From Oceanispirochaeta sp. (GTDB lineage: Bacteria > Spirochaetota > Spirochaetia > DSM-2461): a DNA stretch of 64,000 nt. The stretch spans positions 480,001-544,000 of the forward strand of contig CAXXOA010000001.1 in assembly GCA_963666275.2 (NCBI GenBank), given 5' to 3'. The notes beneath the pieces are model-generated. The model did no database searches. It had not been told where the DNA came from and saw only the letters and a program-made list of their open reading frames with translations. Below, piece by piece: positions 12,100 to 26,164 of the stretch. How positions within the stretch are numbered: the first letter of the stretch is position 1; every line of letters starts with the position of its first letter. Both the position numbers and the translations under genes were made by a program.

Positions 12100-12984
12100 T
12101 CACTCCAGAATCAGCTCTTTCAGAAATTTCAGACAGCTGTGAACCGCCGGCTGGTCGGAGAGTTCAAAAGCCTCTTTCAGTGATACCACCTTCCGGAGTC
12201 TCTCCTCTCTTTCATCCCACTGCTTTCTCAGCTTGCTCACCTCGATGGGAAAGGCAAGCATATTGATATAGTCGCTTCCTCTTTTGTAGGGAATCCTGAT
12301 GGGACGATGGGTCACGGTCCCTTCCACTCCGGCCTCTTCGTAGGCTTCCAGCAGGGCCACTTCTTCAAAGGTTTTCCGGCTCTCCTGATGGCCTTTGGGA
12401 AAAATCCAGTGATGGTTGTTCCGTTTCGTTACCAGAATGACCCGGAGTTTTCCTTTCTTCCAGAAGTAGGGAATCGTACCCACAACTCCCTTGTTCATTC
12501 CCGAGGGGAGGAGCTGATGGAGCTGATGAGCATCGATCCTGGCGAGGGAGCGGTTCATATACCTTTTGTCAAAGGTTACCTCTTCGCCGAAATAGGGCGG
12601 CGGCTGGAATAGGGCTGCTTCTTTTTTATCAACGAATTCCACTTCCGCAGTGTACAGCCCCTGCAGGGAGCCCTGGTAGGCATCAATTTCCACTTCCATT
12701 TCCTGCCATAGGGTTGTATAGCGGATTTTCTCAAGACGAAGCCCTTCCGTTGCTTCCCAGAAAAGGTCAAACTGGGACTGGCTTATTTCCGTTTCCAGCT
12801 CCTTCCGGCGGAGACCCGATCCGATTTTCACAGTCTGGTAACAGGTCTTCTCTTTCTGACGGAGCCGGACTTCTCTGTCCTTTTCCAAAGCCAGATATCC
12901 CTGTTTTATCCGGGCTTTCTGTATATATTTCAAATCCTCCGGGAGCGTCTCCAGTAGAAATTTTCTTTCAATTTCATGATTCAT
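12100..12984 (-). CDS. CYTH domain - NUDIX hydrolase fusion
   Basis: EIERKFL (CYTH ExExK), KQGYL, EKIRY, AEVEF; C-terminal WIFPKG...EAYEEAGV Nudix box; AGGAG before ATG 12984. Confidence 0.88.
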   Translation of the reverse strand: MNHEIERKFLLETLPEDLKYIQKARIKQGYLALEKDREVRLRQKEKTCYQTVKIGSGLRRKELETEISQSQFDLFWEATEGLRLEKIRYTTLWQEMEVEIDAYQGSLQGLYTAEVEFVDKKEAALFQPPPYFGEEVTFDKRYMNRSLARIDAHQLHQLLPSGMNKGVVGTIPYFWKKGKLRVILVTKRNNHHWIFPKGHQESRKTFEEVALLEAYEEAGVEGTVTHRPIRIPYKRGSDYINMLAFPIEVSKLRKQWDEREERLRKVVSLKEAFELSDQPAVHSCLKFLKELILE

Positions 12985-13377
12985 ACTCCTACTATATAAA
13001 AAATAAATCACTTGGTCTTTACTTGTCTGCCTGGAAATCTTCCAACATTTCATCTCTTCCTCTCATCAGAGAGGAAATAAGAATCCTTTTCCGGATGGAA
13101 TGTGAATATTTACATAATAATTGGTCTATATATAACTATAAAAATATAATGATAAAAAAATATTGACAACTCCTGAATGGTGCTGTTTAAATAGTAATTA
13201 CACAATATATATTTCCTTTAATATTTATAAACACCAGGATTGAATCTTAAAATCTGCTTTTAAAAAAAAAGGAGTTTTTCTTTCGCAACAGATTTTAAAG
13301 GATTACGATTAAAGGAATAGCCTACCCCGATTTACTTATAACTGGAAACTTTACTACTAAAAAAATGGAGGAATTCT

Positions 13378-13869
13378 GTGAAGTTTAAAACCGCCGTTAT
13401 TTCGCTTGTGTTGGGCCTGCTGTTCTGGCTCGGTCTGAACGGCAGTTCTGATCCGGGAGTACTTATTGCAGGGGCTGCCGTTGCGTTCATCGCGGCGTCA
13501 TTCCATGTGAAATCTCCTGTCCTGGGAGATCTAAGGCTCACACCCAAAGCGCTCTTCGCCTTCCTGGCCTGGATGTTTGTTTTTGCTTTTGAACTGATCA
13601 AATCCAATATCGACGTGATGTTCCGGGTTATCTCTCCCCGGGTAAGGATCAATCCGGCCATTGTGGAAGTCAAAACCAGGCTGAAGTCTCCTCTGGGACG
13701 ACTGGCCCTGGCAAATTCCATCACTCTCACACCGGGAACACTCACGGCGGATATCAGGGATGACAGCCTTTTTATCCACTGGATCGATGCCTCCACCACC
13801 AATGTGGAAGAGGCCACTGATGCTATCGTGGCAAAGTTCGAAAAACATCTGGAGGTGATCTTTGGCTGA
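13378..13869 (+). CDS. mnhE: Na+/H+ antiporter subunit E (MnhE/MbxA-like)
   Basis: LANSITLTPGTLT, IHW; GTG start. Confidence 0.9.
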   Translation: MKFKTAVISLVLGLLFWLGLNGSSDPGVLIAGAAVAFIAASFHVKSPVLGDLRLTPKALFAFLAWMFVFAFELIKSNIDVMFRVISPRVRINPAIVEVKTRLKSPLGRLALANSITLTPGTLTADIRDDSLFIHWIDASTTNVEEATDAIVAKFEKHLEVIFG

Positions 13870-14122
13870 CCAGATTCTTATGATTGCGGTCCTGATCTCC
13901 CTGGGGAGCATCGGGATCATTCTTATCCGGTTTATACTGGGACCTTCTGTTCTGGACAGGGTCGTGGCCTTTGATGCAGCCGGTATCATCGGGATTTCCC
14001 TGATTGTTCTGCTCTCCCATTTTCTGGAAAGGGTCATCTATGTGGATGTGGCTCTTGTTTATGGCCTGCTCAGTTTTATCGGTGTCCTGGTTGTGGCCAG
14101 GTATCACGAAAGGGGGCTTTGA
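13862..14122 (+). CDS. mnhF: Na+/H+ antiporter subunit F (MnhF-like)
   Basis: GPSVLDRVVAFD, DVALVY..LSF.G. Confidence 0.9.
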   Translation: MADQILMIAVLISLGSIGIILIRFILGPSVLDRVVAFDAAGIIGISLIVLLSHFLERVIYVDVALVYGLLSFIGVLVVARYHERGL

Positions 14123-14458
14123 ATGGAAATGTTAGGCGCAATCCTTGCCCTGATGGGATCAATAATCTTTCTGATCAGTGCTTTGGGATTAATCCGTATG
14201 CCCGACCTGTACAACAGGATTCAGACGGGAACCAAAGCCACCACCCTGGGAACCATACTCCTTGCGGTGGGGCTCTGTCTTGTTCACCCCGCATGGACGG
14301 GAAAGCTAGTAATCCTGATGCTTTTTATACTGCTGACCAACCCGATCTCCTCTCATGTGGTGGCCAGGGGAGCCCATTACAGCGGTCAGGAAATGACAGA
14401 GAAAACCATTAATGACGCTCTGGCGGAGGAAGATCCTCAGAAGGAGGTGACAGCATGA
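14123..14458 (+). CDS. mnhG: Na+/H+ antiporter subunit G (MnhG-like)
   Basis: GLIRMPDLYNR...TKATTLG, TNPISSH. Confidence 0.9.
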   Translation: MEMLGAILALMGSIIFLISALGLIRMPDLYNRIQTGTKATTLGTILLAVGLCLVHPAWTGKLVILMLFILLTNPISSHVVARGAHYSGQEMTEKTINDALAEEDPQKEVTA

Positions 14459-14700
14459 CTGTGATTTTTCTTATCGTGGCACTCTTTACGCTTGTTCTGG
14501 CTCTTTATGCGGTTCTGACAAAAGACAGAACCGTGGCCGTCCTGTCGGCGGGAGCTGCCGGGCTGTTCGCTTCGATCCTGTTTATCATGATGGCTGCTCC
14601 GGATGTGGCCATGACCGAAGCGGCCATCGGAAGCGGTTTGACCACATTTATCTTTTTCTTTGCTCTGAAAAAAGTGAAAAGGGGGCAGGGGAATGGTTAG
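14455..14700 (+). CDS. DUF4040 / MbhD-like membrane subunit
   Basis: APDVAMTEAAIG motif, three hydrophobic helices. Confidence 0.85.
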   Translation: MTVIFLIVALFTLVLALYAVLTKDRTVAVLSAGAAGLFASILFIMMAAPDVAMTEAAIGSGLTTFIFFFALKKVKRGQGNG

Positions 14701-15394
14701 GAAAGGTTTTATTCTTCTTATGATCCTGGCCCTGGGAGCTCTTTTCTGGGATTTTGCAGGGGAATACGCAAGCCGTCAGGTTCTGCCTGAAGTCTCCGCC
14801 CACTATGTGGAACAGGGACCGGAAGAGCTGGGAGCACCCAATGTGGTTACCTCCGTGGTTGTAACCTACCGGGGGCTGGATACCCTGGGAGAAGTGACGA
14901 TCCTTTTTGCCGCCGCAGCGGTAGTGGGTCTTCTGCTCCATCTCAAGGGAAATGAAAACGAAAAAAGGCGGGAGGGGAGTGAGCTGCTGCAGACCGGAGC
15001 AGCCCTTCTGTTTCCTCTGATCCTGCTGTTCGGCGTGTATGTCTTTATGAACGGGCATCTTACACCGGGGGGTGGTTTTCAGGGCGGCGCCATCATCGCA
15101 TCGGCTGTGGTCCTGTCAGCTCTTGCCCATCCCGACAGAAAGGGGAATCACACTGTCCTTTCTCTGATCGAATCCCTCTCCGGGCTGAGTTATGTCATCC
15201 TGGGGGCGGCGGGAGTCTTCCTGACAGTCAATGGGTTTCTGGATAATCGGATCCTCCCTCTGGGCAGGTATGGTTCCCTCTTCAGCGCCGGGCTGATCCC
15301 TGTGATCTACTCTGTGGTGGGGCTCAAAGTCGGTGCGGAGCTCAGCTCCGTGGTGGTTTCTCTGAAAGGAGAACCCGGGGAGGAGAGGGTATGA
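14693..15394 (+). CDS. mnhB: MnhB-family subunit (MbhE+MbhF-like fusion)
   Basis: NVVTSVVVTYRGLDTLGE and GHLTPGGGFQGG. Confidence 0.88.
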   Translation: MVRKGFILLMILALGALFWDFAGEYASRQVLPEVSAHYVEQGPEELGAPNVVTSVVVTYRGLDTLGEVTILFAAAAVVGLLLHLKGNENEKRREGSELLQTGAALLFPLILLFGVYVFMNGHLTPGGGFQGGAIIASAVVLSALAHPDRKGNHTVLSLIESLSGLSYVILGAAGVFLTVNGFLDNRILPLGRYGSLFSAGLIPVIYSVVGLKVGAELSSVVVSLKGEPGEERV

Positions 15395-15741
15395 TAGGTA
15401 ATATTGCCCTTGTAACCGGGGTTCTGCTGATCCTTATCGGACTGTGGGGACTCCTGACCAACAAAGATATGATCCGCATGATTGTGGGATGCTCTCTTTT
15501 TGACCTGGGTGTGCATATTGTGATGCTCAGTGTGGGATACATAAGCGGCGGCACGGCCCCGATTGTCGAAAAGCTTGCAGATCCAGGTAAAACCTATGTG
15601 GACCCGGTTCCCCAGGCTCTTGTGCTGACTGCTATTGTGATCGGCCTGGGAATCACCGCTTTCATGCTGACCTATGCGGTGAGTCTCTATGAAAAAAAAG
15701 GGACCCTGGACATTGACAGGTTTGAGGAGCTGAAATGGTAA
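15391..15741 (+). CDS. mnhC: MnhC / NuoK-like subunit
   Basis: DPVPQALVLTAIVIG. Confidence 0.9.
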   Translation: MIGNIALVTGVLLILIGLWGLLTNKDMIRMIVGCSLFDLGVHIVMLSVGYISGGTAPIVEKLADPGKTYVDPVPQALVLTAIVIGLGITAFMLTYAVSLYEKKGTLDIDRFEELKW

Positions 15742-18700
15742 ATCCGATTTTTCTCATAGTAATTGCCCTGGGTACCGCGTTTCTCCTCGGCCTGTTTCGA
15801 AAAGCCTCTGTATCCCTCCGGTCGGGACTGACCCTGCTGGCCCTGGCTGCCATGACAGCGGTTTCGGCCTTGTGGGTGTATGGTATCTTCTCCGGGAGCA
15901 CCCCGGGAATGGATGTTTTCACAGCGGGCTTCAAACCGCCCCTTTCCATTAGCCTCTCCCTGGGAAAGACAGAGGCTGTTCTTCTTCTGCTTGTCAATCT
16001 GACAGCTTTTATGAGCATGCTGTTCCTCAGAAAAGAGGTTCAATCCACATCGGTCTATATGCTGATGCTGCTGATGGTCTTTGTGACCGGTCTGAACGCT
16101 GTGGTTATGACAAGGGATCTGTTCAATCTTTTCGTGTTTATTGAAATTGTCAGCATCGCCTCTGCAGGTCTCATTGCCCTTAAAAGTGATCTCAGGCAGC
16201 TGAGCGCGGGATTCAAGTTTGTCATTGCCGGGGCCCTGGCCAGCGGATTCATGCTGCTGGGGATTATATTCGTCTACTACAGCACGGGATCCCTCAATCT
16301 GGATGTGATTGCCTCCACCCTGCCTGCGGCTCTGGCCTCCGCCGGGTTTGCGGGAATCTTTCTGGTTTTTATCGGAATGATCATGGAGCTGAAACCTTTT
16401 CCCGTGAACGGATGGGGACTGGATGTCTATGAAGCGGCCCAGCCTCCTGTGGCGGCTCTTGTGGCGGCCGGAACCGGCAGCGTTATGTTCTACGCCTTCA
16501 TTAAAGTTATGGCAGTCCTGGGCGGTCATTTTACAGGTGCCGCCATTGTGATCGGCGGGGCCACCTTCGTGGGCATGAATATTCTGGCCCTGAAACAGGA
16601 AAAGGCCCGCCGGCTCCTGGGATACTCCTCCATCAGCCAGATGGGCCTCCTTGTCATGGCCTACGGTCTTCTGAGGCAGACCGGAGCCCCCCGGCCGGAT
16701 GTTATCCTCTTCGGTCTCCTCATAACCCATGCCCTGGCCAAGGCCGGGCTCTTCTGGATCGCCGGTCTTGTGGAAAAGGAGAATATCCGGGACTGGGCAC
16801 TTATCCGGAGAAATCCGGCGGCTCTACTGGCTATGATCCTGGCTGTCTTCGGCCTCACCGCCTTTCCTCCTTTCCCTTCGTTTTTTGCCAAATGGGAACT
16901 GGTTATGGCCCTGGCGGGAAAAGGAGGATTCGGTTTCATCGCTGTGATTCTGGTGGGATCTTTCCTGGAAGCGGTCTATCTCTTCCGCTGGCTGGGATAT
17001 GCTCTGAAACTGGATTTCAGCAGGGATGAGCCCTTTAATACCTCGTCTCTTTCTGCTGTGCCCTCTCTTCTGTTCGGCCTGATTCTGGTGGGGCTCGGTT
17101 ACTTTATGGGCACCCCCTACGGAATCTCCTGGATCCCCCTTGGGGCGGTACTGGGTTTTCTGGTTCTGGACAGGCTGGATTCCCGGATCAAGAATACCTT
17201 TGCCCTGATCGTGATCGGTGCGTTCGGGTACCTGAACTACACCCACTATATGGGTGACCTTTTCAAGGTGATTTTTGCCGGTGTTTTTATTGGCGGCGCC
17301 TTTCTGACCACCCTGTCGGGATACTACTACAAAGGCCGAAGAGCCGGCTTCCATGCCTCTACCATGTCCATGTTTTTCGGGCTGTTCATGCTCCTTTCGG
17401 CGCAAACGATGCTGCAGTTCTTCTATGCCTGGGAGTTTATGGCCATCGGTTCCTACTTTCTGCTGATCCGGGGAAAGAAATCCATGCCCCACGGCTACAG
17501 CTATCTGATGTTCAGCATCGGCGGTTCCTTTGCCATGCTTATGGGCTTTGCCATGGCCTATCTTTCCAGCGGATCGGCGGGGATGGATGCGCTGCATCAT
17601 ATATCCGTGTATCCCGCCGTGGCCTACTCTCTGCTGCTTATCGGTTTTATGACCAAAACCGCCACCATGGGGTTCCATACCTGGCTTCCCGGAGCTCACG
17701 GTGAAGCTGTCGCGGACATTCACTTTATGGCTTCGGCGATCCTGCTGAAAGCGGGAGTCCTGGGAATCATCTACGTGCTTCTGGGAATGGACCTTAATAC
17801 GGCCTACAGTCACTGGATCCTGCTGACCCTGGGATGGCTGGGAATCCTCAGCTCCCTTATAGGCAATGTGAATGCCGCTTTTCAGGAGAGTGCCAAGAGG
17901 CTCCTGGCCTGGTCCAGTATCGGACAGCTGGGATACATTGTGTTCGGTCTGTCCACCATGAGTCATATGGGCTGGCTCATCGCCCTCTCCCTTTCGATCA
18001 CCCACTTCCTGTACAAGGGAATCCTCTTCCTTATAATCGGGGGGATCTCTCTGAAACTCGGTACACCCATGATGTATAAGATGGGCGGTATGATCCGGAA
18101 AATGCCCTTCAGCTTTCTGGCTGTTCTGATCGCCATTATCACCCTGTCGGGCATTCCTCCCCTGGTGGGATTCACAGCCAAGTGGATTCTCTACAATGTC
18201 ACCGTAGGCAACGGCCTCTATTTTCAGGGCGTTATTGCCTCCTTTGCCGGGCTCGTGGCGTTCCTCTATCTGTTCCGTCTGATCTTCTCCATCTTTCTGG
18301 GACAGCTGAAGGACGAACACCGGAAGGTGGGGGAGATCAATATCTGGTTTCTCATTCCCGTCTATCTTCTGATTACCTATATCATTGTGGTCTCCTTTCT
18401 GCCGGGAACCCTCCTGGGACCCATCGGAGACAAACTGATGGCCTTCTTTCCGGAAAACCCGATTATCTGGGAAGGCTATCTGGCTAAATCGGAACTGGGC
18501 TACTTCAACGGAACCATGATTATGAATGTCTTCATGACCCTCTTTGTGGTGAACTTCCTGATCCTCTTCCTTATGAACAGAAAAAGAGCCCAGAAGGTGG
18601 AACAGTTCAATATCGTCTATGCGGCGGAACGGCCGGCCAGGCCCGAAACCACTCATTTCGCCTACAACTTCTTCGCTCCCTACAGAAGGGCCGTGGGGGT

Positions 18701-18866
18701 ACTGGAATATCCTTTTGTCACCCGGTTCTGGAGCGGCCTCAGTGATATCCTTCACGCCCTGAGCGGTTTCTTCCGGAGGGTTTATACGGGAAACGGACAG
18801 ACCTATCTGCTGCAGATGGTCGTATTTGTGGTCGTCACCTATATGCTGACCAGAGGAGGAGTGTGA
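15735..18866 (+). CDS. Double antiporter-like subunit (two fused MrpD/NuoL-M-N-type proton-translocating modules)
   Basis: 1043 aa; two sets of motifs: DLFNLFVFIE..WGLDVYEAA..RLLGYSSISQ and FFYAWE..HTWLPGAH..KRLLAWSSIGQ. Confidence 0.88.
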   Translation: MVNPIFLIVIALGTAFLLGLFRKASVSLRSGLTLLALAAMTAVSALWVYGIFSGSTPGMDVFTAGFKPPLSISLSLGKTEAVLLLLVNLTAFMSMLFLRKEVQSTSVYMLMLLMVFVTGLNAVVMTRDLFNLFVFIEIVSIASAGLIALKSDLRQLSAGFKFVIAGALASGFMLLGIIFVYYSTGSLNLDVIASTLPAALASAGFAGIFLVFIGMIMELKPFPVNGWGLDVYEAAQPPVAALVAAGTGSVMFYAFIKVMAVLGGHFTGAAIVIGGATFVGMNILALKQEKARRLLGYSSISQMGLLVMAYGLLRQTGAPRPDVILFGLLITHALAKAGLFWIAGLVEKENIRDWALIRRNPAALLAMILAVFGLTAFPPFPSFFAKWELVMALAGKGGFGFIAVILVGSFLEAVYLFRWLGYALKLDFSRDEPFNTSSLSAVPSLLFGLILVGLGYFMGTPYGISWIPLGAVLGFLVLDRLDSRIKNTFALIVIGAFGYLNYTHYMGDLFKVIFAGVFIGGAFLTTLSGYYYKGRRAGFHASTMSMFFGLFMLLSAQTMLQFFYAWEFMAIGSYFLLIRGKKSMPHGYSYLMFSIGGSFAMLMGFAMAYLSSGSAGMDALHHISVYPAVAYSLLLIGFMTKTATMGFHTWLPGAHGEAVADIHFMASAILLKAGVLGIIYVLLGMDLNTAYSHWILLTLGWLGILSSLIGNVNAAFQESAKRLLAWSSIGQLGYIVFGLSTMSHMGWLIALSLSITHFLYKGILFLIIGGISLKLGTPMMYKMGGMIRKMPFSFLAVLIAIITLSGIPPLVGFTAKWILYNVTVGNGLYFQGVIASFAGLVAFLYLFRLIFSIFLGQLKDEHRKVGEINIWFLIPVYLLITYIIVVSFLPGTLLGPIGDKLMAFFPENPIIWEGYLAKSELGYFNGTMIMNVFMTLFVVNFLILFLMNRKRAQKVEQFNIVYAAERPARPETTHFAYNFFAPYRRAVGVLEYPFVTRFWSGLSDILHALSGFFRRVYTGNGQTYLLQMVVFVVVTYMLTRGGV

Positions 18867-18867
18867 G

Positions 18868-19806
18868 ATGGAATTCAAATACATCCATATCCTGTATGCA
18901 GCCATTACCATCTTTCTGACCATAAACTACGGTCTTCTGCTGCAGGGTATCATAGGAAAAATCTATGCCCGGGTGGGCAAAAGAATCGGCATCAGGATCT
19001 ATCAGCCCTGGATCAATATTATCCGTCAGTGGGTGACCCGGTCATCCATTCATCACGGGGTCATGTACTATCTGGGGCCGGTCTTCCGTTTTACAGGGGG
19101 CGGCGGAATCCTCATCTTTCTGCCTCTGGTGTACGGCGTGCCCCTGTTCTCCTCCTTTGTGGGAACAGGAGATCTGCTGCTGATCCTCTACTTTATGTTT
19201 ATAGGAACCCTGGGGATGGCCCTGGGAGGCGGAGAAGCGGGGCATCCCTATTCGGCCATCGCGGTTACCCGGGGACTCAGCCAGGTGACTGCCGCGGAGG
19301 TTCCTCTGGTTCTGGCTATCTTCTCCATTTCCATCCAGTACGGAACCATGGATATTATGAAGATTGTGGGTGCTCAGCAGGGGAGCGTTCTCAACTGGAC
19401 CCTCTTTACCAACCCCCTGGCCACGGCTGCGGCTATGATCGCCTTTCTGGGATCCATGATGCGGAGCCCCTTTGATGTGGTCATAGCTCCCCAGGAGATC
19501 CCCATCGGACCTCCCACGGAGTATCAGTCCCAGTTTCTGGCTATGCTTATGACCAACAGGACCATCTTTCCGGTAGCAAAGACTGTCTTTTATGTGAACC
19601 TCTTTTTCGGAGGAGTGGCTCTTTATGACAGCTACCTTCTGACGTTTCTTGTTTTCTTCCTCAAGACCTTCTTCGTTTACATGTGGTCTGTGTTCGTCGG
19701 TGTCTCCTTCCCCCGGTTCCGGGTGGAACAGAGTATCCGGTTCTTCCTGAAATGGCCTCTCCTGATCGGAGCGGCAGCCGTTATTGCGGCTCAGATAAGG
19801 TATTGA
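18868..19806 (+). CDS. NuoH-like membrane subunit (MbxM-like)
   Basis: ARVGKRIG..QP, PFDV..A.QEI..GP.TEY, PRFRVEQ. Confidence 0.9.
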   Translation: MEFKYIHILYAAITIFLTINYGLLLQGIIGKIYARVGKRIGIRIYQPWINIIRQWVTRSSIHHGVMYYLGPVFRFTGGGGILIFLPLVYGVPLFSSFVGTGDLLLILYFMFIGTLGMALGGGEAGHPYSAIAVTRGLSQVTAAEVPLVLAIFSISIQYGTMDIMKIVGAQQGSVLNWTLFTNPLATAAAMIAFLGSMMRSPFDVVIAPQEIPIGPPTEYQSQFLAMLMTNRTIFPVAKTVFYVNLFFGGVALYDSYLLTFLVFFLKTFFVYMWSVFVGVSFPRFRVEQSIRFFLKWPLLIGAAAVIAAQIRY

Positions 19807-19808
19807 TT

Positions 19809-20474
19809 ATGGCAAAGATGAATTATGGAAAACGCAAAGCCGATCTGGAAAGACGGACTGTGACGGGACCCGACGGGGAAACCTTTGAAGTGGATCCCAT
19901 GAAAGACTACTTTTCCCAGGAGCCCCCGAAGGTCTACGAACCTTCCAGGCTGACTCCCATGGAAAAATTCTACAACTGGTGCCGGGCCGAATCCATCTAT
20001 ATCCTGGGGTTCGGAACCGGATGCGGCGCCATCGAGATGCGGCCCCTTATGAGCCCCATGTACGATGCCTACCGCTACGGTATCCACTGGCGTCCCACGC
20101 CCCGGCAGTCCACGGTTTTTGTGATCGGCGGTTATGCCTCGGTCAAAACCATCAAAAGGATTGTCCGCAGCTATGAACAGATGCCCGGACCCAAATACGT
20201 TCTGGCTGTCTGCAGCTGCACCATCAACGGCGGCATGTACTGGGACTCCTACAACACAATCAACCGGCTGGATCACTACATACCAGTGGATGTTTATGTC
20301 ACAGGCTGTATGCCCCGGCCCGAAGCGATTCTGGATTCTGTAGAGACTCTGAAAAAAAGGATCAAAGAGGGACGGGCCGAAGGGCAGAATAAATATGCGG
20401 AAAATTTCGACTGGTACAAGGCGAATCAGAAGAAAATCATAAAAGACTGGGATATGCCCGACTACAACTGGTAA
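19809..20474 (+). CDS. NuoB-like Fe-S small subunit (MbxJ-like)
   Basis: GCGAIEM, TPRQS, YEQMPGPKYV, SCTINGG, PVDVYVTGCMPRPEA. Confidence 0.9.
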   Translation: MAKMNYGKRKADLERRTVTGPDGETFEVDPMKDYFSQEPPKVYEPSRLTPMEKFYNWCRAESIYILGFGTGCGAIEMRPLMSPMYDAYRYGIHWRPTPRQSTVFVIGGYASVKTIKRIVRSYEQMPGPKYVLAVCSCTINGGMYWDSYNTINRLDHYIPVDVYVTGCMPRPEAILDSVETLKKRIKEGRAEGQNKYAENFDWYKANQKKIIKDWDMPDYNW

Positions 20475-20486
20475 GGAGGTTCACCG

Positions 20487-21035
20487 ATGGAAACAGTCAT
20501 TAAAAATGTACGGAAACAGTTTGAATTGTCCGATGTCACCTCCGCCCACGGGTACTTTGTTACCTGTGAAAAGAAGGATGCCGTCAGTGTCCTGTCCTAT
20601 CTGAAGAGCAGTGAGGGCTTTACCCATCTGGTCCTGATCACTGCGGTGGACTGGATCGAGGAGGGCAGGTTTCAGCTGACCTATCTTCTCAACAATCCGG
20701 TAATGAAAAAGGAGCTGGGAGTCAGGACTTTTATTGAAAGGAGCGTCTGGCCGGCAGAGTCGGAAATGTTTACGGCCCATCATCTCTGGCCGGCGGCAAA
20801 AACCTATCAGAGGGAACTCCACGAAATGTTCGGCATCGACTTTCCCGGGAGCCCCGAGATCGACGAACCCCTGATACTGGAATACTGGGATGATATTCCC
20901 CCCTACAGAAGGGACTTCGACACGAAAAAGTACTCCGAAGAGACCTACTTTCCCCGTGAGGGACGGAGCACCAGTGATCCGGCTGAGTATATGAAAGAGA
21001 AGCTCTACCCCCGGGAAGGAGAGAAGAATGCTTGA
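20487..21035 (+). CDS. NuoC-like subunit (MbxK-like)
   Basis: ITAVDW, RELHEMFGIDFPGSP, PPYRRDF. Confidence 0.9.
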   Translation: METVIKNVRKQFELSDVTSAHGYFVTCEKKDAVSVLSYLKSSEGFTHLVLITAVDWIEEGRFQLTYLLNNPVMKKELGVRTFIERSVWPAESEMFTAHHLWPAAKTYQRELHEMFGIDFPGSPEIDEPLILEYWDDIPPYRRDFDTKKYSEETYFPREGRSTSDPAEYMKEKLYPREGEKNA

Positions 21036-22209
21036 TTACGGAGAAAAGAACAGAGAGCTGTTTCCTGAGACAAAGAGTGACGGTACCGTGGACATCGATC
21101 TCTCCAGCGGGAAGTTCACCAAGCTCTGGCACGGCCCCAACCATCCTGGAATCACAGGGAACATGTCCCTGGAACTGACCCTTCTGGGGGACGAAATCAT
21201 GGAGTCCAAAACCCACGTGGGATACCTTCACCGGGGGTTTGAGAAACTTATGGAGCGGCGCCGGTTTATCAACAACTTCCCCCTGGTCTGCCGGGTCTGC
21301 GTTCCAGAGCCTGACTTCAACGAGTACTGCTACGCCGCGGCCCTGGAGGAACTGGCAGGGGTGGAAATCCCTGAAAATGCCCAGTGGATCCGGACCCTTA
21401 TCCTGGAGATGGCCCGGCTCCAGTCCTATCTGATGTGGATCGGCGGTCAGGCCGGTGCTTTCGGTATGGGAATGATTGGCCAGTGGACCCTCTGGGCCCG
21501 CGACCGGGTTCTGCAGATGTTCGAAGAGCTCTCGGGGGGGAGGATCTATCATATCTTCATCATTCCCGGGGGAGTCAGGAATAATCTGACCGACGGTTTC
21601 AAGGGACGGATGCTGGAATGCCTGGCCGATGTGACATCCATTCTGGATGATGTGGAACGGGTACTCTTCAACAATGCGGTCTTCAAAAAACGGACTGTCG
21701 GACTGGCCGTGATCGATCCCGACTGGGTGGATGAGTACGGCATCACCGGCCCCAATGCCCGGGCGGCGGGTGTTCCCAAAGACGTTAGGAAGGACAATCC
21801 CTATCTGAAATACCCTGAACTGGATTTTGAAGCTGTCACCGGCACCGATTCGGATGTCTACACCCGGGCGAGAGTCCGCTTTGACGACTGCCGGCAGACT
21901 GTGGATCTGATCCGCCAGATTCTGGAGAGAACTCCCGAGTCGGGAGAGTTCAAGGCGAAGATGCCCAGTATGCTCCACTGGAAAATCCCTGCGGGAGAGA
22001 CCTATAAAAAGGCCGAGTGTACCCGGGGGGAATACGGCTATTACATTGTCACAGACGGCTCGGGCTATCCCCGGAGGGTGAATGTCCGTGGTCCATCCTA
22101 TACCCATGCGGTCACTCTGGCCGAAAAAATGCTGGTTAATGCCAACCTTGCGGACGTGGCGGGGACCCTGGTCTCCCTCCATACCTATCCGCCCGAAGTG
22201 GAGAGATAA
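21028..22209 (+). CDS. NuoD-like large subunit (MbxL-like), not a NiFe hydrogenase
   Basis: GPNHPG, GYLHRGFEK, RVCVPE, ECTRGEYG, RGPSY; C-terminus HTYPPEVER has no Cys. Confidence 0.9.
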   Translation: MLDYGEKNRELFPETKSDGTVDIDLSSGKFTKLWHGPNHPGITGNMSLELTLLGDEIMESKTHVGYLHRGFEKLMERRRFINNFPLVCRVCVPEPDFNEYCYAAALEELAGVEIPENAQWIRTLILEMARLQSYLMWIGGQAGAFGMGMIGQWTLWARDRVLQMFEELSGGRIYHIFIIPGGVRNNLTDGFKGRMLECLADVTSILDDVERVLFNNAVFKKRTVGLAVIDPDWVDEYGITGPNARAAGVPKDVRKDNPYLKYPELDFEAVTGTDSDVYTRARVRFDDCRQTVDLIRQILERTPESGEFKAKMPSMLHWKIPAGETYKKAECTRGEYGYYIVTDGSGYPRRVNVRGPSYTHAVTLAEKMLVNANLADVAGTLVSLHTYPPEVER

Positions 22210-22210
22210 G

Positions 22211-24067
22211 ATGGGAAAATCGAGTAAAACAAGCTTTAAGGACGTTCTGTATCCGTTTACCACATGGAAAAATATCCTGAAGGAGCCGGTGACCATCCGG
22301 CATCCTGAAAAAAGGGAGGGCTCCGACCGGTACAGGGGATTCCATACCAACGATATTGATAAATGCATAGGCTGCGGCACCTGTGAAGAGATCTGCCAGA
22401 ATGCGGCGATCGACCTGGTTCCTTGCGAGGGAGTTGAAACCAAACCGGGAGATTCGGGCCTCCGGCCCCGGGTGGACTACGGCCGCTGCTGCTGGTGCGC
22501 CCTCTGTGTGGATGTATGCACAACCAACTCTCTGGGAATGTCCAACAACTTCCGCTGGTCCGTGGAGGGGGAGAACAAAGAGGACGTTCTCACAGGTTCT
22601 TCAGGGTCTCCCGACGACTACCGATTTATCATCGGTGCGGAGGGGAAGTACTGGGACAAGGCGGAAAAAGGGTATAAAAAGCCCGAAGATTACGATCTGA
22701 CACCCCCCGAGCGGGTGGGGATGGATCATCTCTCTGTAGAGGAGAGGGGCGAATCCTTTGTGGAAATGATGAAGGGCTATTCGAAGGAGCAGGCCCTGAA
22801 AGAAGCGGACCGCTGTGTGGAGTGCGGTATCTGCACCGCCACCTGCCCGGCCCATATGGGAATTCCCGCCTATATAAAAGCCATCCGGGAGGATGATCTG
22901 GAAGAGGGGCTGAGGATCCTTTACGAAACGAACCCTCTGCCCGAAGTGTGCGGACGGATCTGTACCCACAAGTGCGAAACAGTCTGTTCCATCGGACATA
23001 AGGGGGATCCCCTCTCTATCCGCTGGCTCAAGCGCTATATCGCTGACAATGTGCCGGCTGAAAAATATAAGGAGATCCTGGGGACTTCGGACATCGCAAA
23101 AAACGGCTGGAAAGTGGCAGTGGTGGGATCCGGGCCTTCCGGGCTGTCAGCGGCTCACTACCTGTCTCTTATGGGCTATCAGGTGACAATCTTTGAAGCC
23201 CTGCCCCGGGCGGGAGGGATGATGAGATACGGAATCCCCGAATACCGTATGCCCTACGATCAGATCGACAAGGATATCAGCTATATTACCTCTCTGGGCG
23301 TGGAGATCCGGACAAACTGCAAAGTGGGGAAGGAGATAACTCTGGATGAGCTGAAGGAGCAGTACGATGCAGTCTTCGCCGGAACGGGCCTCCATCTGGG
23401 CCGGTCTACCCGGATCGAAAATTCCGACCATAAGAAGGTCTATCAGTCCATCGATCTGCTGCGGCAGATTACCCTGGGAGAAGATATTTATGTTCCCGAA
23501 AAAATTGTGATCATCGGAGGAGGGAATGTGGCTATGGATATAACCCGCTCCCTGGCCCGGAAGCAGAGACAGAAGTACGGTAAGGTGGACATCGTTACCA
23601 CCTGTCTGGAACCGGCCGACGGCATGCTGGCAGATGATGAAGAGGTGGAGGAAGCCCGGGAAGAAGGAGCTGTTATTACTCCCTCCTACGGCCCCCAGAG
23701 TATCGAGATCATCGATGAGGAATGGGTAAAAGGCCTTCATGTGGCGAAATGTCTGCATATTTTTGACGAAGAAGGACGGTTCAATCCTGCCTTTGACAGG
23801 GAGAACTCCCGGTTTTATGAGGCTGATATGATCATAGAATCGATCGGTCAGGCTTCGGATATTTCCTACATTCCCGAGAGCCTGCAGAACAGCCTGGAAT
23901 TCAATCCCCGCCGGCAGATCCTGGCCGATCCGGATTTTCAGGTGAAGGGGCAGCCCTGGCTCTTTGTGGGCGGGGATATCGCCAGAGGGCCGGATGTCAT
24001 AAACGGGATCGCTACCGGTCATCTGGCGGCCGTGGGAATCGACAGATACCTGAAGGAGGAGTCTTGA
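22211..24067 (+). CDS. NuoI-like 2x[4Fe-4S] ferredoxin fused to a GltD/SudA-like FAD-NAD(P) oxidoreductase
   Basis: RYRGFH..CIGCGTCEEIC, CCWCALCVDVC; then EADRCVEC..CPAH, CGRICTHKCE..C, GSGPSG, GGGNVAMD, GGD. Confidence 0.9.
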   Translation: MGKSSKTSFKDVLYPFTTWKNILKEPVTIRHPEKREGSDRYRGFHTNDIDKCIGCGTCEEICQNAAIDLVPCEGVETKPGDSGLRPRVDYGRCCWCALCVDVCTTNSLGMSNNFRWSVEGENKEDVLTGSSGSPDDYRFIIGAEGKYWDKAEKGYKKPEDYDLTPPERVGMDHLSVEERGESFVEMMKGYSKEQALKEADRCVECGICTATCPAHMGIPAYIKAIREDDLEEGLRILYETNPLPEVCGRICTHKCETVCSIGHKGDPLSIRWLKRYIADNVPAEKYKEILGTSDIAKNGWKVAVVGSGPSGLSAAHYLSLMGYQVTIFEALPRAGGMMRYGIPEYRMPYDQIDKDISYITSLGVEIRTNCKVGKEITLDELKEQYDAVFAGTGLHLGRSTRIENSDHKKVYQSIDLLRQITLGEDIYVPEKIVIIGGGNVAMDITRSLARKQRQKYGKVDIVTTCLEPADGMLADDEEVEEAREEGAVITPSYGPQSIEIIDEEWVKGLHVAKCLHIFDEEGRFNPAFDRENSRFYEADMIIESIGQASDISYIPESLQNSLEFNPRRQILADPDFQVKGQPWLFVGGDIARGPDVINGIATGHLAAVGIDRYLKEES

Positions 24068-24068
24068 A

Positions 24069-24506
24069 ATGGGTGAAATGCGGATCTCTGATATTCTGAA
24101 ATATTCCATAAAAATCGAGCATGAGAGCATGCTGTTTTATGACAGTGCGGAACCCCGGGCCTCTTCCGAGGAAACCAGAACCCTTTTAAAAGATCTGGCG
24201 GCGGAAGAGGTAAAGCATGAAAACCGGCTGTCCGAACTTCTCAATGGTATAGAAGACGGTGCGGCCCGGGGTTTTGACCATACCAGTCTGGAGAACCTGA
24301 TACGGAACCGGGAGATACCAGAAGGGGCTGATCAGGAGACTATTCTGAAAATAGCTCTGGAGAGGGAGGAACACACCAGGGATTTCTACAGTCAGGTTCT
24401 GACCCTGACGAATCTGGAAGCCAATGTGGTCGATGTTTTTGATATGCTCCATAAGCAGGAGTCGGGGCATGTGACACGTATTATAGGTCTTCTGGGTAAT
24501 CTCTGA
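24069..24506 (+). CDS. Ferritin-like (rubrerythrin-family) di-iron protein without a rubredoxin domain
   Basis: E..S..FY, EEVKH, E....DFY, QESGH pattern of a four-helix di-iron bundle. Confidence 0.8.
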   Translation: MGEMRISDILKYSIKIEHESMLFYDSAEPRASSEETRTLLKDLAAEEVKHENRLSELLNGIEDGAARGFDHTSLENLIRNREIPEGADQETILKIALEREEHTRDFYSQVLTLTNLEANVVDVFDMLHKQESGHVTRIIGLLGNL

Positions 24507-24528
24507 GACAGTCTCACTTCACAGCAGG

Positions 24529-24556
24529 GGCTTCCGCCGGACGGAAGCCTTTTTTT
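24529..24556 (+). terminator. Intrinsic terminator closing the Mrp/Mbx-like operon
   Basis: GGCTTCCG-CCGGA-CGGAAGCC followed by a T tract. Confidence 0.85.
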
Positions 24557-24622
24557 ATAAAAAATTGTGTTCTCAAATATAGAAAATAATCTATACTCAG
24601 GTTAAGGGGATGTAGTTTTAAA

Positions 24623-26164
24623 ATGGCTTTACTTTCAATGAAGATAACCCTCGTTCTAACCCTTCTGGCAGTCATCTCTCTCTATCTGTCTGCCTGGTCA
24701 TTTACACGGCGGAATCAGGTTTCGGGAGCTCTTGAATTTTCCCTCTTTCTGCTGACTGTCGCCCTTTATGATTTCGGCTATGCCATTGAAATCAATTGCG
24801 ATACCCTGGAGGAAATCTACTGGGCTCTGAGAATCCAGTACCTTGGTCTGCCTTTCATGACAGTATTCTATTTTCTCTTTTCCATGCGTTTTGTATTTGA
24901 AAAGGATTTTCCCCGTCCCTTGAAGGACCTGCTGTTTCTGATTCCCTTTGTGACAGTCCTTCTTGTGTTTACTCTGGGACATCACAATCTGTTTTATAAA
25001 GAGGCCACTGTTATCTCTGCTTCGGGGATACGTCTTCTCTACTATAAACCGGGAATCTGGTACATTATCCATTTTATTTCCCTGATAGGTCTCTCTCTGG
25101 CTGGAGAAGTTGTTCTGTTTATGGGATTTCTCCGCTTTCAGGGGATTAAACGAAAGCAGGTCCTTCTTATTTTTATTTCCGGCCTGATCCCTCTCATTAC
25201 CGGTATATTCACTCCCGGCAGATTCTATTATTTTGATATTCAGCCCTTTTCCCTGGCAACCATGGGGATCTTTCTGAGCATTGCCATTTACAAGCACAGG
25301 CTCCTGGAGCTGGTCCCCCAGGCACGGGAGCTGGCATTTGACTCTATCAATGAGTATCTGATTGTTCTGGACCATTCGGGAAAGATCCGGGACATGAATG
25401 TTTCCGCCAGAACTTCCGAACTTTTTAAGGATATGAAAAATGATGACCACCTGATGGAACGGTCTCCATTCTGCGATTTCCTGCCTGATCTTCTGAAAAT
25501 GACAGAGGAGCAGGAATTTCAACAGGAATACCGGTTCCGCTTTCTGGAATATCATTTTTATATGAAGGTTTATGCGGTTAAAGCTCCTCAGCTTGATAGT
25601 CTGGGGTTTATCCTGATTATCCGGGAAACCACTGAGACTGTTAAACTGATGAATGAACTGAAAGAGCAGGCTATTTACGATGAGCTTACAGGGCTGTTCA
25701 ACCGCAGACAGATTTTCAGCCTGGCGGAACGGGAAGTCCTCCTTGCGAAAAGGACAGGTTCCCATACGGGGATTATCCTTATGGATCTGGACCGGTTCAA
25801 GATCATAAATGACAACTACGGGCACCTGGCGGGAGATCGAGTCCTTTCCTCTGTTTCACAGGCCCTGCAGAAGGCAATGCGGTCTACTGATCTTATTGGC
25901 CGGTACGGCGGAGAAGAGTTCGTGGTGATCTGCCCCTGCACGGACTCTGAGACTTCCCGGCAGATTGCCGAAAGGCTCCGAAGGAGTATCGAGTCTCTGG
26001 ATATTGAATATGAAGGGAACAGAATCTCGGTTTCTGCCAGTTTCGGAGTCAAATCCGGAGTCTTCGGAGCGGATGCCACTCTCTGTGATTTTCTTGAATC
26101 CGCGGATAGAGCTCTGTATACAGCTAAAAGGGAAGGCCGGAACAGAGTCGTTCTTTCGGACTGA
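24623..26164 (+). CDS. Diguanylate cyclase with N-terminal HisKA_7TM-type membrane sensor
   Basis: Seven hydrophobic segments; DELTGLFNRR, DLDRFK.IND.YGH, RSTD I-site, RYGGEEF. Confidence 0.9.
   Translation: MALLSMKITLVLTLLAVISLYLSAWSFTRRNQVSGALEFSLFLLTVALYDFGYAIEINCDTLEEIYWALRIQYLGLPFMTVFYFLFSMRFVFEKDFPRPLKDLLFLIPFVTVLLVFTLGHHNLFYKEATVISASGIRLLYYKPGIWYIIHFISLIGLSLAGEVVLFMGFLRFQGIKRKQVLLIFISGLIPLITGIFTPGRFYYFDIQPFSLATMGIFLSIAIYKHRLLELVPQARELAFDSINEYLIVLDHSGKIRDMNVSARTSELFKDMKNDDHLMERSPFCDFLPDLLKMTEEQEFQQEYRFRFLEYHFYMKVYAVKAPQLDSLGFILIIRETTETVKLMNELKEQAIYDELTGLFNRRQIFSLAEREVLLAKRTGSHTGIILMDLDRFKIINDNYGHLAGDRVLSSVSQALQKAMRSTDLIGRYGGEEFVVICPCTDSETSRQIAERLRRSIESLDIEYEGNRISVSASFGVKSGVFGADATLCDFLESADRALYTAKREGRNRVVLSD

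Follow-up and report, generated by a model that had tools for sequence, protein, structure and literature searches.

An mbx-like operon of Oceanispirochaeta encodes a probable ion-translocating relative of complex I that may couple NADH to sulfane sulfur

Which redox reaction is carried out by a membrane complex in which Mrp-type antiporter subunits and the NuoH/B/C/D core of complex I are joined to a GltD-like flavoprotein? The question is raised by a 13-gene operon on the + strand (13378–24506) of a 64,000-nucleotide stretch of Oceanispirochaeta sp. (positions 480,001 to 544,000 of contig CAXXOA010000001.1, GenBank assembly GCA_963666275.2), here called the window. A first-pass annotation, made from the letters of the window, had described the operon as one unit closed by a terminator and had read it as an uncharacterised, ion-pumping ferredoxin:NAD(P) oxidoreductase. 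The operon is real, intact and widespread, and it belongs to the bacterial mbx-like (Mrp-Mbx-GltD) kind; its complex, judged by its active-site residues, is neither a hydrogenase nor complex I. Of the reactions considered, we tentatively favour an NADH:sulfane-sulfur oxidoreductase coupled to the movement of H+ or Na+, an energetically marginal reaction that we hold somewhat short of an even chance.

Twelve of the genes encode all 13 subunit types (A, B, C, D, E, G, H, H', M, J, K, L and N) of MBS, the Pyrococcus furiosus complex formerly called MBX, with H and H' fused into a double antiporter. Gene families were assigned with Pfam and NCBIfam profiles, and for MbsA, D, E and K the equivalence is a Pfam assignment only. 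P. furiosus MBS (6U8Y) was the best PDB match for L, J, residues 1–120 of N, M, G, C and the first antiporter half, L matching MBS at 5e-98, Thermus Nqo4 at 8e-59 and MBH at 6e-42; B and the whole double antiporter scored marginally higher against MBH 6CFW. This bears out the Mbx/Mbs-type layout that had been read from the gene order. In quick trees, L fell within an Mbx-type clade (Shimodaira–Hasegawa-like approximate likelihood ratio support 99), separate from NuoD and from two group 4 hydrogenase large subunits, in a subclade that includes Magnetococcus ‘mbxL’, 70% identical to the L of the operon. The L sequences of Thermotoga maritima and P. furiosus are not in these trees, and no named L of either was present in the homologue searches or the representative search; the second tree omits L100 and 14 near-duplicate rows. 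In approximately unbiased tests on 19 rows, grouping of the subclade with Nuo was rejected (p 0.0008), as was grouping with group 4 hydrogenase large subunits (p 0.03), of which there were only two rows.

A close relative of L is encoded in 300 stretches of the GTDB collection, the best 80 of which were analysed as related loci. They span Spirochaetota, Bacteroidota, Alpha-, Beta- and Gammaproteobacteria, Myxococcota, Marinimicrobia and Caldisericota and share one gene order; the nearest named relative is an Oceanispirochaeta metagenome-assembled genome (MAG) with an L 97% identical. The NuoI-GltD fusion was complete in 69 of the 80 loci (nine were cut by the contig end and two were without flank), and among the 64 loci extending as far as the double antiporter, 58 have it fused and the other six are cut; recurring in this way, the two fusions are not due to chance. 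Against NCBIfam profile NF010590 (PRK13984) the N-flavoprotein scored 855.6 bits over the full profile, below the cut-off of 946 bits. A T. maritima protein exceeds this cut-off; across 301 genomes of the phylum no protein attains it, and 22 of the 301 match at E 1e-150 or better. Two genomes, G007 and G144, hold two Mbx-GltD-like loci each. The N-flavoprotein fusion may, reportedly, have been classified already by Schut et al. in 2013 and 2016.

The layout is also in print. In 2015, Degli Esposti catalogued ‘mbx-like’ operons in Thermotoga, in Magnetococcus and among proteobacteria (PMC4758237) and in section 5 proposed a ferredoxin to NAD(P)+ function, so that the claim of an uncharacterised system was overstated. 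In strain 3DAC, bacterial MBS genes were found to respond to elemental sulfur (PMC10356935). A search of the literature outside subscription papers and supplements brought up no enzymology of any bacterial Mbx-GltD complex. The likely refinements offered here are the NAD(H)-type and non-bifurcating assignments of the flavoprotein, both drawn from motifs.

The catalytic end of the complex resembles that of MBS. All three residues that bind the catalytic cluster in MBS are retained in J, as C72, C137 and C167, in 71 of 71 homologues, and the position of MbsJ C25 is Gly or Ala (G69 here). According to PMC7684303, the open-iron cluster of MBS, bound by C28, C93 and C123 only, itself reduces polysulfide, and C25, C85 and C385 are dispensable. 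In L, the equivalent of MbsL C85 is kept as C91 and that of C385 is lost: H385 (78/79 homologues) and Y387 (79/79) replace MbsL D383 and C385. The pair is nearly invariant in a wider set as well (118 of the 120 top homologues) and aligns with the Asp and Val of the last, C-terminal motif of NuoD; other bacterial subclades retain Cys at the Y387 position, or have Val.

Several further cysteines were noted in these two subunits. C58 and C135 of J co-occur in 11 of 71 homologues, which form the mainly spirochaete lineage nearest the operon, and never occur singly, the others having Ala and Gly; C135 sits two residues before the ligand C137. A disulfide or a fourth ligand is possible, and as a single lineage is concerned this counts as one event. 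All 79 L homologues have a Cys at position 88 (75) or 87 (4), just before a conserved Arg near the proximal cluster; it corresponds to no Ni-ligand position and MbsL has no equivalent. The CRVC motif of L was considered as the L1 pair of a hydrogenase and rejected, only its second Cys lying at a Ni-ligand position. In the subclade L114–L120, L lost both vestigial cysteines (Asn, Val) and J keeps the C25 equivalent.

That the complex is a group 4 [NiFe] hydrogenase evolving H2 would fit its Mrp-linked layout, as in MBH, and weak matches to hydrogenase large subunits. L, however, retains one of the four Ni ligands, C91, and this in 63 of 79 homologues only; the other three positions are E94, Y387 and E390. 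HypD was not found in the host genome, which is 97% complete (other hyp genes were not searched for), and grouping with the group 4 subunits was rejected as given above, which leaves this reading with a negligible probability. For complex I, the positions of His38 and Tyr87 are T43 and V92 in L (79/79), and the tandem NuoB cysteines of cluster N2 are not present in J. The host genome contains a single NuoD-family gene and no free NuoF, its three NuoF-family matches being RnfC and two genes located next to those of [FeFe]-hydrogenases. The earlier statements that NuoEFG and hydrogenase maturation genes are missing from the window, and that neither a hydrogenase nor a canonical complex I is encoded, are upheld by these results.

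Ion transport by the complex is likely, since the ion-path residues named for MBS in PMC7684303 and PMC8165549 are kept, in line with the Na+/H+ machinery proposed before. In the H half of the antiporter, the charged axis E137, E218, K257, H332 and K386 was found in 57–58 of 59 homologues; in the H' half, E567, K641, K672 and H757 are kept in 59/59 and K816 is Lys or Arg. The position of MbsG E37 is D38 here and is variable in homologues (Asp in 36 and Asn in 16 of 58). The operon deviates from near-invariant antiporter columns at V659 (Glu in 57/59) and S719 (Asp in 57/59), and its MnhC has C34 where 58 of 58 homologues have Phe.

The N-flavoprotein carries two [4Fe-4S] motifs in its N part and, in its GltD/NfnL-fold part, two further [4Fe-4S] motifs and FAD; all its cluster cysteines are invariant in 69 sequences. 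By sequence, the complex as a whole has five [4Fe-4S] motifs with the FAD and nucleotide folds. K274, invariant in 69/69, aligns with E126 of NfnL and with the Lys of NfnA in NfnABC. In StnC of Sporomusa, a Lys cluster ligand goes with a non-bifurcating FAD (PMC10482914), and because K274 stands where NfnL has Glu, the flavoprotein is likely to be non-bifurcating. R346 is the equivalent of NfnL R201; StnC keeps this Arg too, hence it is not diagnostic. Of the features of bifurcating NfnSL, the Glu-ligated proximal cluster, the YRR motif and an NfnS in the operon are all missing. An alignment-free fold of the N-flavoprotein (predicted local distance difference test score 32.5) was discarded as useless.

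At the position of YRR in NfnA and NfnL, the operon and its relatives have E467, again invariant in 69/69. In DsrL enzymes, YRR marks the use of NADP(H) and its absence that of NAD(H) (PMC7596348), and with Glu in the place of YRR the flavoprotein is likely of the NAD(H) type. The earlier proposal of NAD(P)(H) at the fused flavoprotein therefore stands as far as a pyridine nucleotide is concerned and likely not for NADP(H). Both types of module occur in the family, NADP-type in three more distant members (L108, L109 and L110), whose YRR falls in the E467 column, and NAD-type (xLE) in L111–L128. Their distribution does not simply track the tree of the L subunit, which points to a cofactor switched more than once or to a swapped module.

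In MBS, the distal clusters that lead from ferredoxin towards the pocket are housed in MbsN (PMC7684303). With MbsN at the electron-entry end and the flavin fused to N, the flavin would most simply feed this end and the substrate of the pocket would lie at the opposite one, so that NADH to an S–S bond is the best reading. NADH would reduce the non-bifurcating FAD, and the electrons would then cross four clusters, two in the flavoprotein part followed by two in N, before reaching the open iron in J. There, in the J/L/M pocket, the S–S bond of polysulfide or an organic polysulfide would be cleaved, and the antiporter arm would be driven in the manner of MBS. Since NADH yields approximately 4–12 kJ/mol with inorganic polysulfide as acceptor, the scheme would need an S–S substrate of higher potential, ferredoxin as a second donor at N, or a smaller number of ions per turnover than MBS moves. 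The ferritin-like protein would likely be an accessory for handling oxidants or iron. Support probably comes from the kept catalytic motif, from expression and from the host. In T. maritima, mbxA was up 4.36-fold with elemental sulfur (PMC9431562, where the predicted donor is ferredoxin). The host encodes three CoA-disulfide-reductase/rhodanese fusions for persulfide handling, one of them with TusA and DsrE (3/4 matches scanned).

Several points weigh against this reaction. The yield of -4 to -12 kJ/mol is below the 14.5 kJ/mol needed per ion at 150 mV, compared with 41 kJ/mol for MBS, and is therefore insufficient for two pumps; ferredoxin to NAD+ (about -42 kJ/mol) and NADH to menaquinone (-40 to -47 kJ/mol) match two pumps and fit the energy better. 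General values of the polysulfide and menaquinone potentials underlie these figures. The altered pocket, with Tyr for C385 and His for D383, may indicate another substrate, and the NAD(H) and non-bifurcation assignments are transferred from motifs in other enzymes. No sulfur-carrier gene was found among the conserved neighbours of the related loci, and the mbx genes of Mesotoga were weakly expressed on thiosulfate (10.1101/322537). As T. maritima and P. furiosus are missing from the tree, the expression data may also concern another subclade.

The energy balance is the strength of an ion-pumping ferredoxin:NAD+ oxidoreductase, in which electrons enter the wire from ferredoxin, NAD+ is reduced at the flavin and the arm acts as the pump. 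This function, proposed in print as noted above, was also assumed for Mesotoga (10.1101/322537), and PMC8165549 suggests that coupling depends more on the chain of three clusters than on the site of the substrate. The idea derives, however, from an NADP-reducing view of Pyrococcus Mbx that was superseded by polysulfide reduction (PMC7684303). Both ferredoxin and the flavin would have their place at the N end, bypassing the J cluster and the coupling loops, and the open-iron cluster motif is invariant. The reaction would moreover duplicate Rnf, the proven ferredoxin:NAD+ Na+ pump of T. maritima (PMC7414866), of which the host has a full operon; of 43 carrier genomes, which as kin are not independent, 39 encode RnfC. 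The function given in the first-pass annotation is accordingly doubtful, and we regard it as unlikely, though ahead of the other alternatives.

The near-invariant H385/Y387 pair can also be counted for an NADH:(mena)quinone oxidoreductase whose head-group site was rebuilt, these residues standing in for His38 and Tyr87. The two align with D401 and position 403 of Thermus, D401 being named as part of the quinone chamber, and a UbiA-family gene was found in all 23 subclade genomes tested and in 14 of 20 genomes of other subclades (kin not independent, many of them MAGs). The UbiA family is broad, however, the complex has neither His38 and Tyr87 nor the tandem cysteines, and a grouping with Nuo was rejected. 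The host had no match to MenB, MqnA/D, MenG, NrfD or cytochrome bd and none to a true Frd, and 13 of the 23 subclade genomes, none proteobacterial and several incomplete, had neither MenB nor MqnA/D. The four proteobacterial carriers tested also hold a canonical NuoD. NAD(H)-type N subunits were found as well in six genomes with no UbiA-family match, so the family does not need quinones. We consider it improbable that a second, independently built NADH:quinone oxidoreductase was derived from MBS in this subclade. Were it so, a GltD-type NADH module would replace NuoEFG and a C-terminal His/Tyr pair the His38/Tyr87 of complex I, giving a two-pump, Na+-coupled complex I analogue in spirochaetes, Bacteroidota and sulfur-oxidising proteobacteria.

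In the host, a MqnL-type decarboxylase (over the cut-off) and a MqnP-like prenyltransferase lie between transporter-like genes at C1:47341-50449, and a MenA-like gene lies on C3; next to the missing MqnA/D, MenB and MenG, these are possibly for naphthoate salvage. A SdhA/FrdA match was rejected as fumarate reductase, being below the cut-off; it adjoins a NadC-like gene and is presumably NadB.

With the NADH/polysulfide couple near equilibrium, the complex could also run in reverse, an ion gradient driving the reduction of NAD+ with sulfide or short polysulfides as donor. The subclade is common in sulfur oxidisers (Thiohalocapsa, Sedimenticola, Thiobacillus, Magnetococcus), and a putative Mrp-Mbx, with no direction assigned, is co-expressed with the reductive tricarboxylic acid cycle in the Riftia symbiont (PMC11636981). 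No paper was found on MBS running in reverse, and the host, which looks fermentative from its genes (six [FeFe]-hydrogenase-domain matches, no cytochrome bd), has no obvious need for uphill NADH. We rate reverse running about as low as the quinone reaction.

The NADH:sulfane-sulfur reading treats the last gene as an accessory. Of the 69 loci in which N is complete, 66 have at least 600 nucleotides of flank and 53 carry a rubrerythrin-family gene 3' of N; its putative diiron ligands E17, E47, H50, E100, E131 and H134 are invariant in 50 sequences. This is what would be expected if the flavoprotein mainly fed the ferritin-like protein for the removal of peroxide or oxygen, with the membrane arm secondary. 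In eight Bacteroidota loci, however, a DHOD-like gene takes the place of the ferritin-like gene, other loci lack the latter altogether, and conservation of the entire pump and of the J cluster does not depend on it; such a function is very improbable. A Crp/Fnr-type regulator was seen upstream in six of these Bacteroidota loci (L015, L018, L021, L022, L030, L032, L035 and L047 being the loci with the DHOD-like gene).

The 13 open reading frames were all recovered where the first-pass annotation had placed them and in the families it had named, followed by the hairpin and T run. They are tightly packed, with gaps of -8 to +12 nucleotides after the starts of the NuoB-like and NuoI-GltD genes were revised to the positions in the table. 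The terminator-like site, with its hairpin and T run at 24526–24552, has 11 pairs and was the top-scoring match of the terminator scan, in which such sites were frequent by chance (30 observed, 17.3 in shuffles). The TTGACA box 5' of the first gene recurs in seven of ten relatives examined, with TTGACT in two more, and is likely part of a sigma-70-type promoter. A 16-nucleotide palindrome at 13100–13115 was dropped as a conserved element, as it is not kept in the ten relatives.

Features of the Mbx-GltD operon and its flanks (positions in the window; aa, amino acids; nt, nucleotides)
Feature	Position	Strand	Evidence
Promoter-like: TTGACA, 18 nt, TTAAAT preceded by TG	13163..13192	+	function inferred
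MbsA/MrpE-like, 163 aa	13378..13869	+	Pfam MNHE 7e-38; H134 in 54/54
MbsB/MrpF-like, 86 aa	13862..14122	+	MrpF; Na+-path D32, R33, D38, D62 (52-53 of 53)
MbsC/MrpG-like, 111 aa	14123..14458	+	MnhG; best PDB match 6u8y_C; D28, R32, P74 (55/55)
MbsD/MbhD-like, 81 aa	14455..14700	+	MbhD (DUF4040); E55; without Trp-rich tail
MbsE-like, 233 aa	14693..15394	+	MbhE and MnhB
MbsG/MrpC-like, 116 aa	15391..15741	+	MnhC; best PDB match 6u8y_G; D38 where MbsG has E37
MbsH and MbsH' fused double antiporter, 1043 aa	15735..18866	+	double Proton_antipo_M
MbsM/NuoH-like anchor, 312 aa	18868..19806	+	NADHdh; 6u8y_M 1e-43; D203, E210, E218 (68/68)
MbsJ/NuoB-like, 221 aa	19809..20474	+	Oxidored_q6; 6u8y_J 6e-61; C72, C137, C167; G69
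MbsK/NuoC-like, 182 aa	20487..21035	+	Complex1_30kDa
MbsL/NuoD-like, 393 aa	21028..22209	+	Complex1_49kDa; 6u8y_L 5e-98; C91, H385, Y387
MbsN (approximately residues 1-120) and GltD/NfnL-fold flavoprotein, 618 aa	22211..24067	+	Fer4, Fer4_20 and Pyr_redox_2; K274, R346, E467
Rubrerythrin-family ferritin-like protein, 145 aa, without rubredoxin domain	24069..24506	+	Rubrerythrin
Intrinsic-terminator-like hairpin and T run	24526..24562	+	terminator scan

The genes on either side are not conserved neighbours of the operon. The 5' one (12100–13053, - strand) encodes a NUDIX-domain protein, the N-terminal part of which we take to be CYTH-like, and the 3' one (24623–26164, + strand) a 7TM-PAS-GGDEF diguanylate cyclase. 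Elsewhere in the host genome there are a separate Mrp-type cluster at C2:2107515-2110921, the full Rnf operon at C2 2009–2014 kb and an NqrB/D/F-like cluster (NqrA was not checked) at C1 2120–2124 kb.

Two readings of the bacterial Mbx-GltD family that contradict each other are in print: in one, electrons from ferredoxin go to NAD(P)+, in the other to sulfur. The motifs narrow the question: NAD(H) comes first, no bifurcation is expected, and the focus falls on His385/Tyr387 and on the cluster with three cysteines. Knowing the reaction would help to explain substrate changes among complex I-like pumps, and it matters for the energy conservation of many anaerobes and sulfur oxidisers in which such genes carry a plain Nuo annotation.

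Among known systems, the mbx-like operons of PMC4758237 share with this one the Mrp genes with NuoH/B/C/D, a GltD-related flavoprotein replacing NuoI, often a terminal rubrerythrin, and a vestigial Ni cysteine in the NuoD homologue (C91 here); NAD versus NADP, bifurcation, the H-H' fusion and the His/Tyr site are absent from the sections consulted. P. furiosus MBS has the same three-cysteine proximal cluster and the same proton and Na+ path residues, with neither the quinone His/Tyr nor a Ni site. It differs in that here N is fused to the flavoprotein and H to H', MbsJ C25 is Gly and MbsL C385 is Tyr, the Trp-rich MbsD tail is missing and a ferritin-like gene is added. StnC, NfnA (NfnABC, PDB 9N5U), NfnL (PDB 5JCA) and DsrL share the two [4Fe-4S] clusters, FAD and nucleotide fold, StnC and NfnA also the Lys cluster ligand and NfnL the Arg equivalent to R201. 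NfnA and NfnL differ by their YRR, the module here being NAD(H)-type like DsrL-1, and all these GltD-fold modules differ in that the present one is fused to a membrane-complex subunit, with no NfnS or HydBC-like partner in the operon. Group 4 [NiFe] hydrogenases (MBH, Ech) are set apart by their four Ni/Fe cysteines, of which the large subunit here has one. Complex I, NDH and Fpo have homologous Q-module and antiporter subunits; compared with them, the Oceanispirochaeta complex has no NuoEFG, no tandem NuoB cysteines and no His38/Tyr87, and has an Mrp Na+ module.

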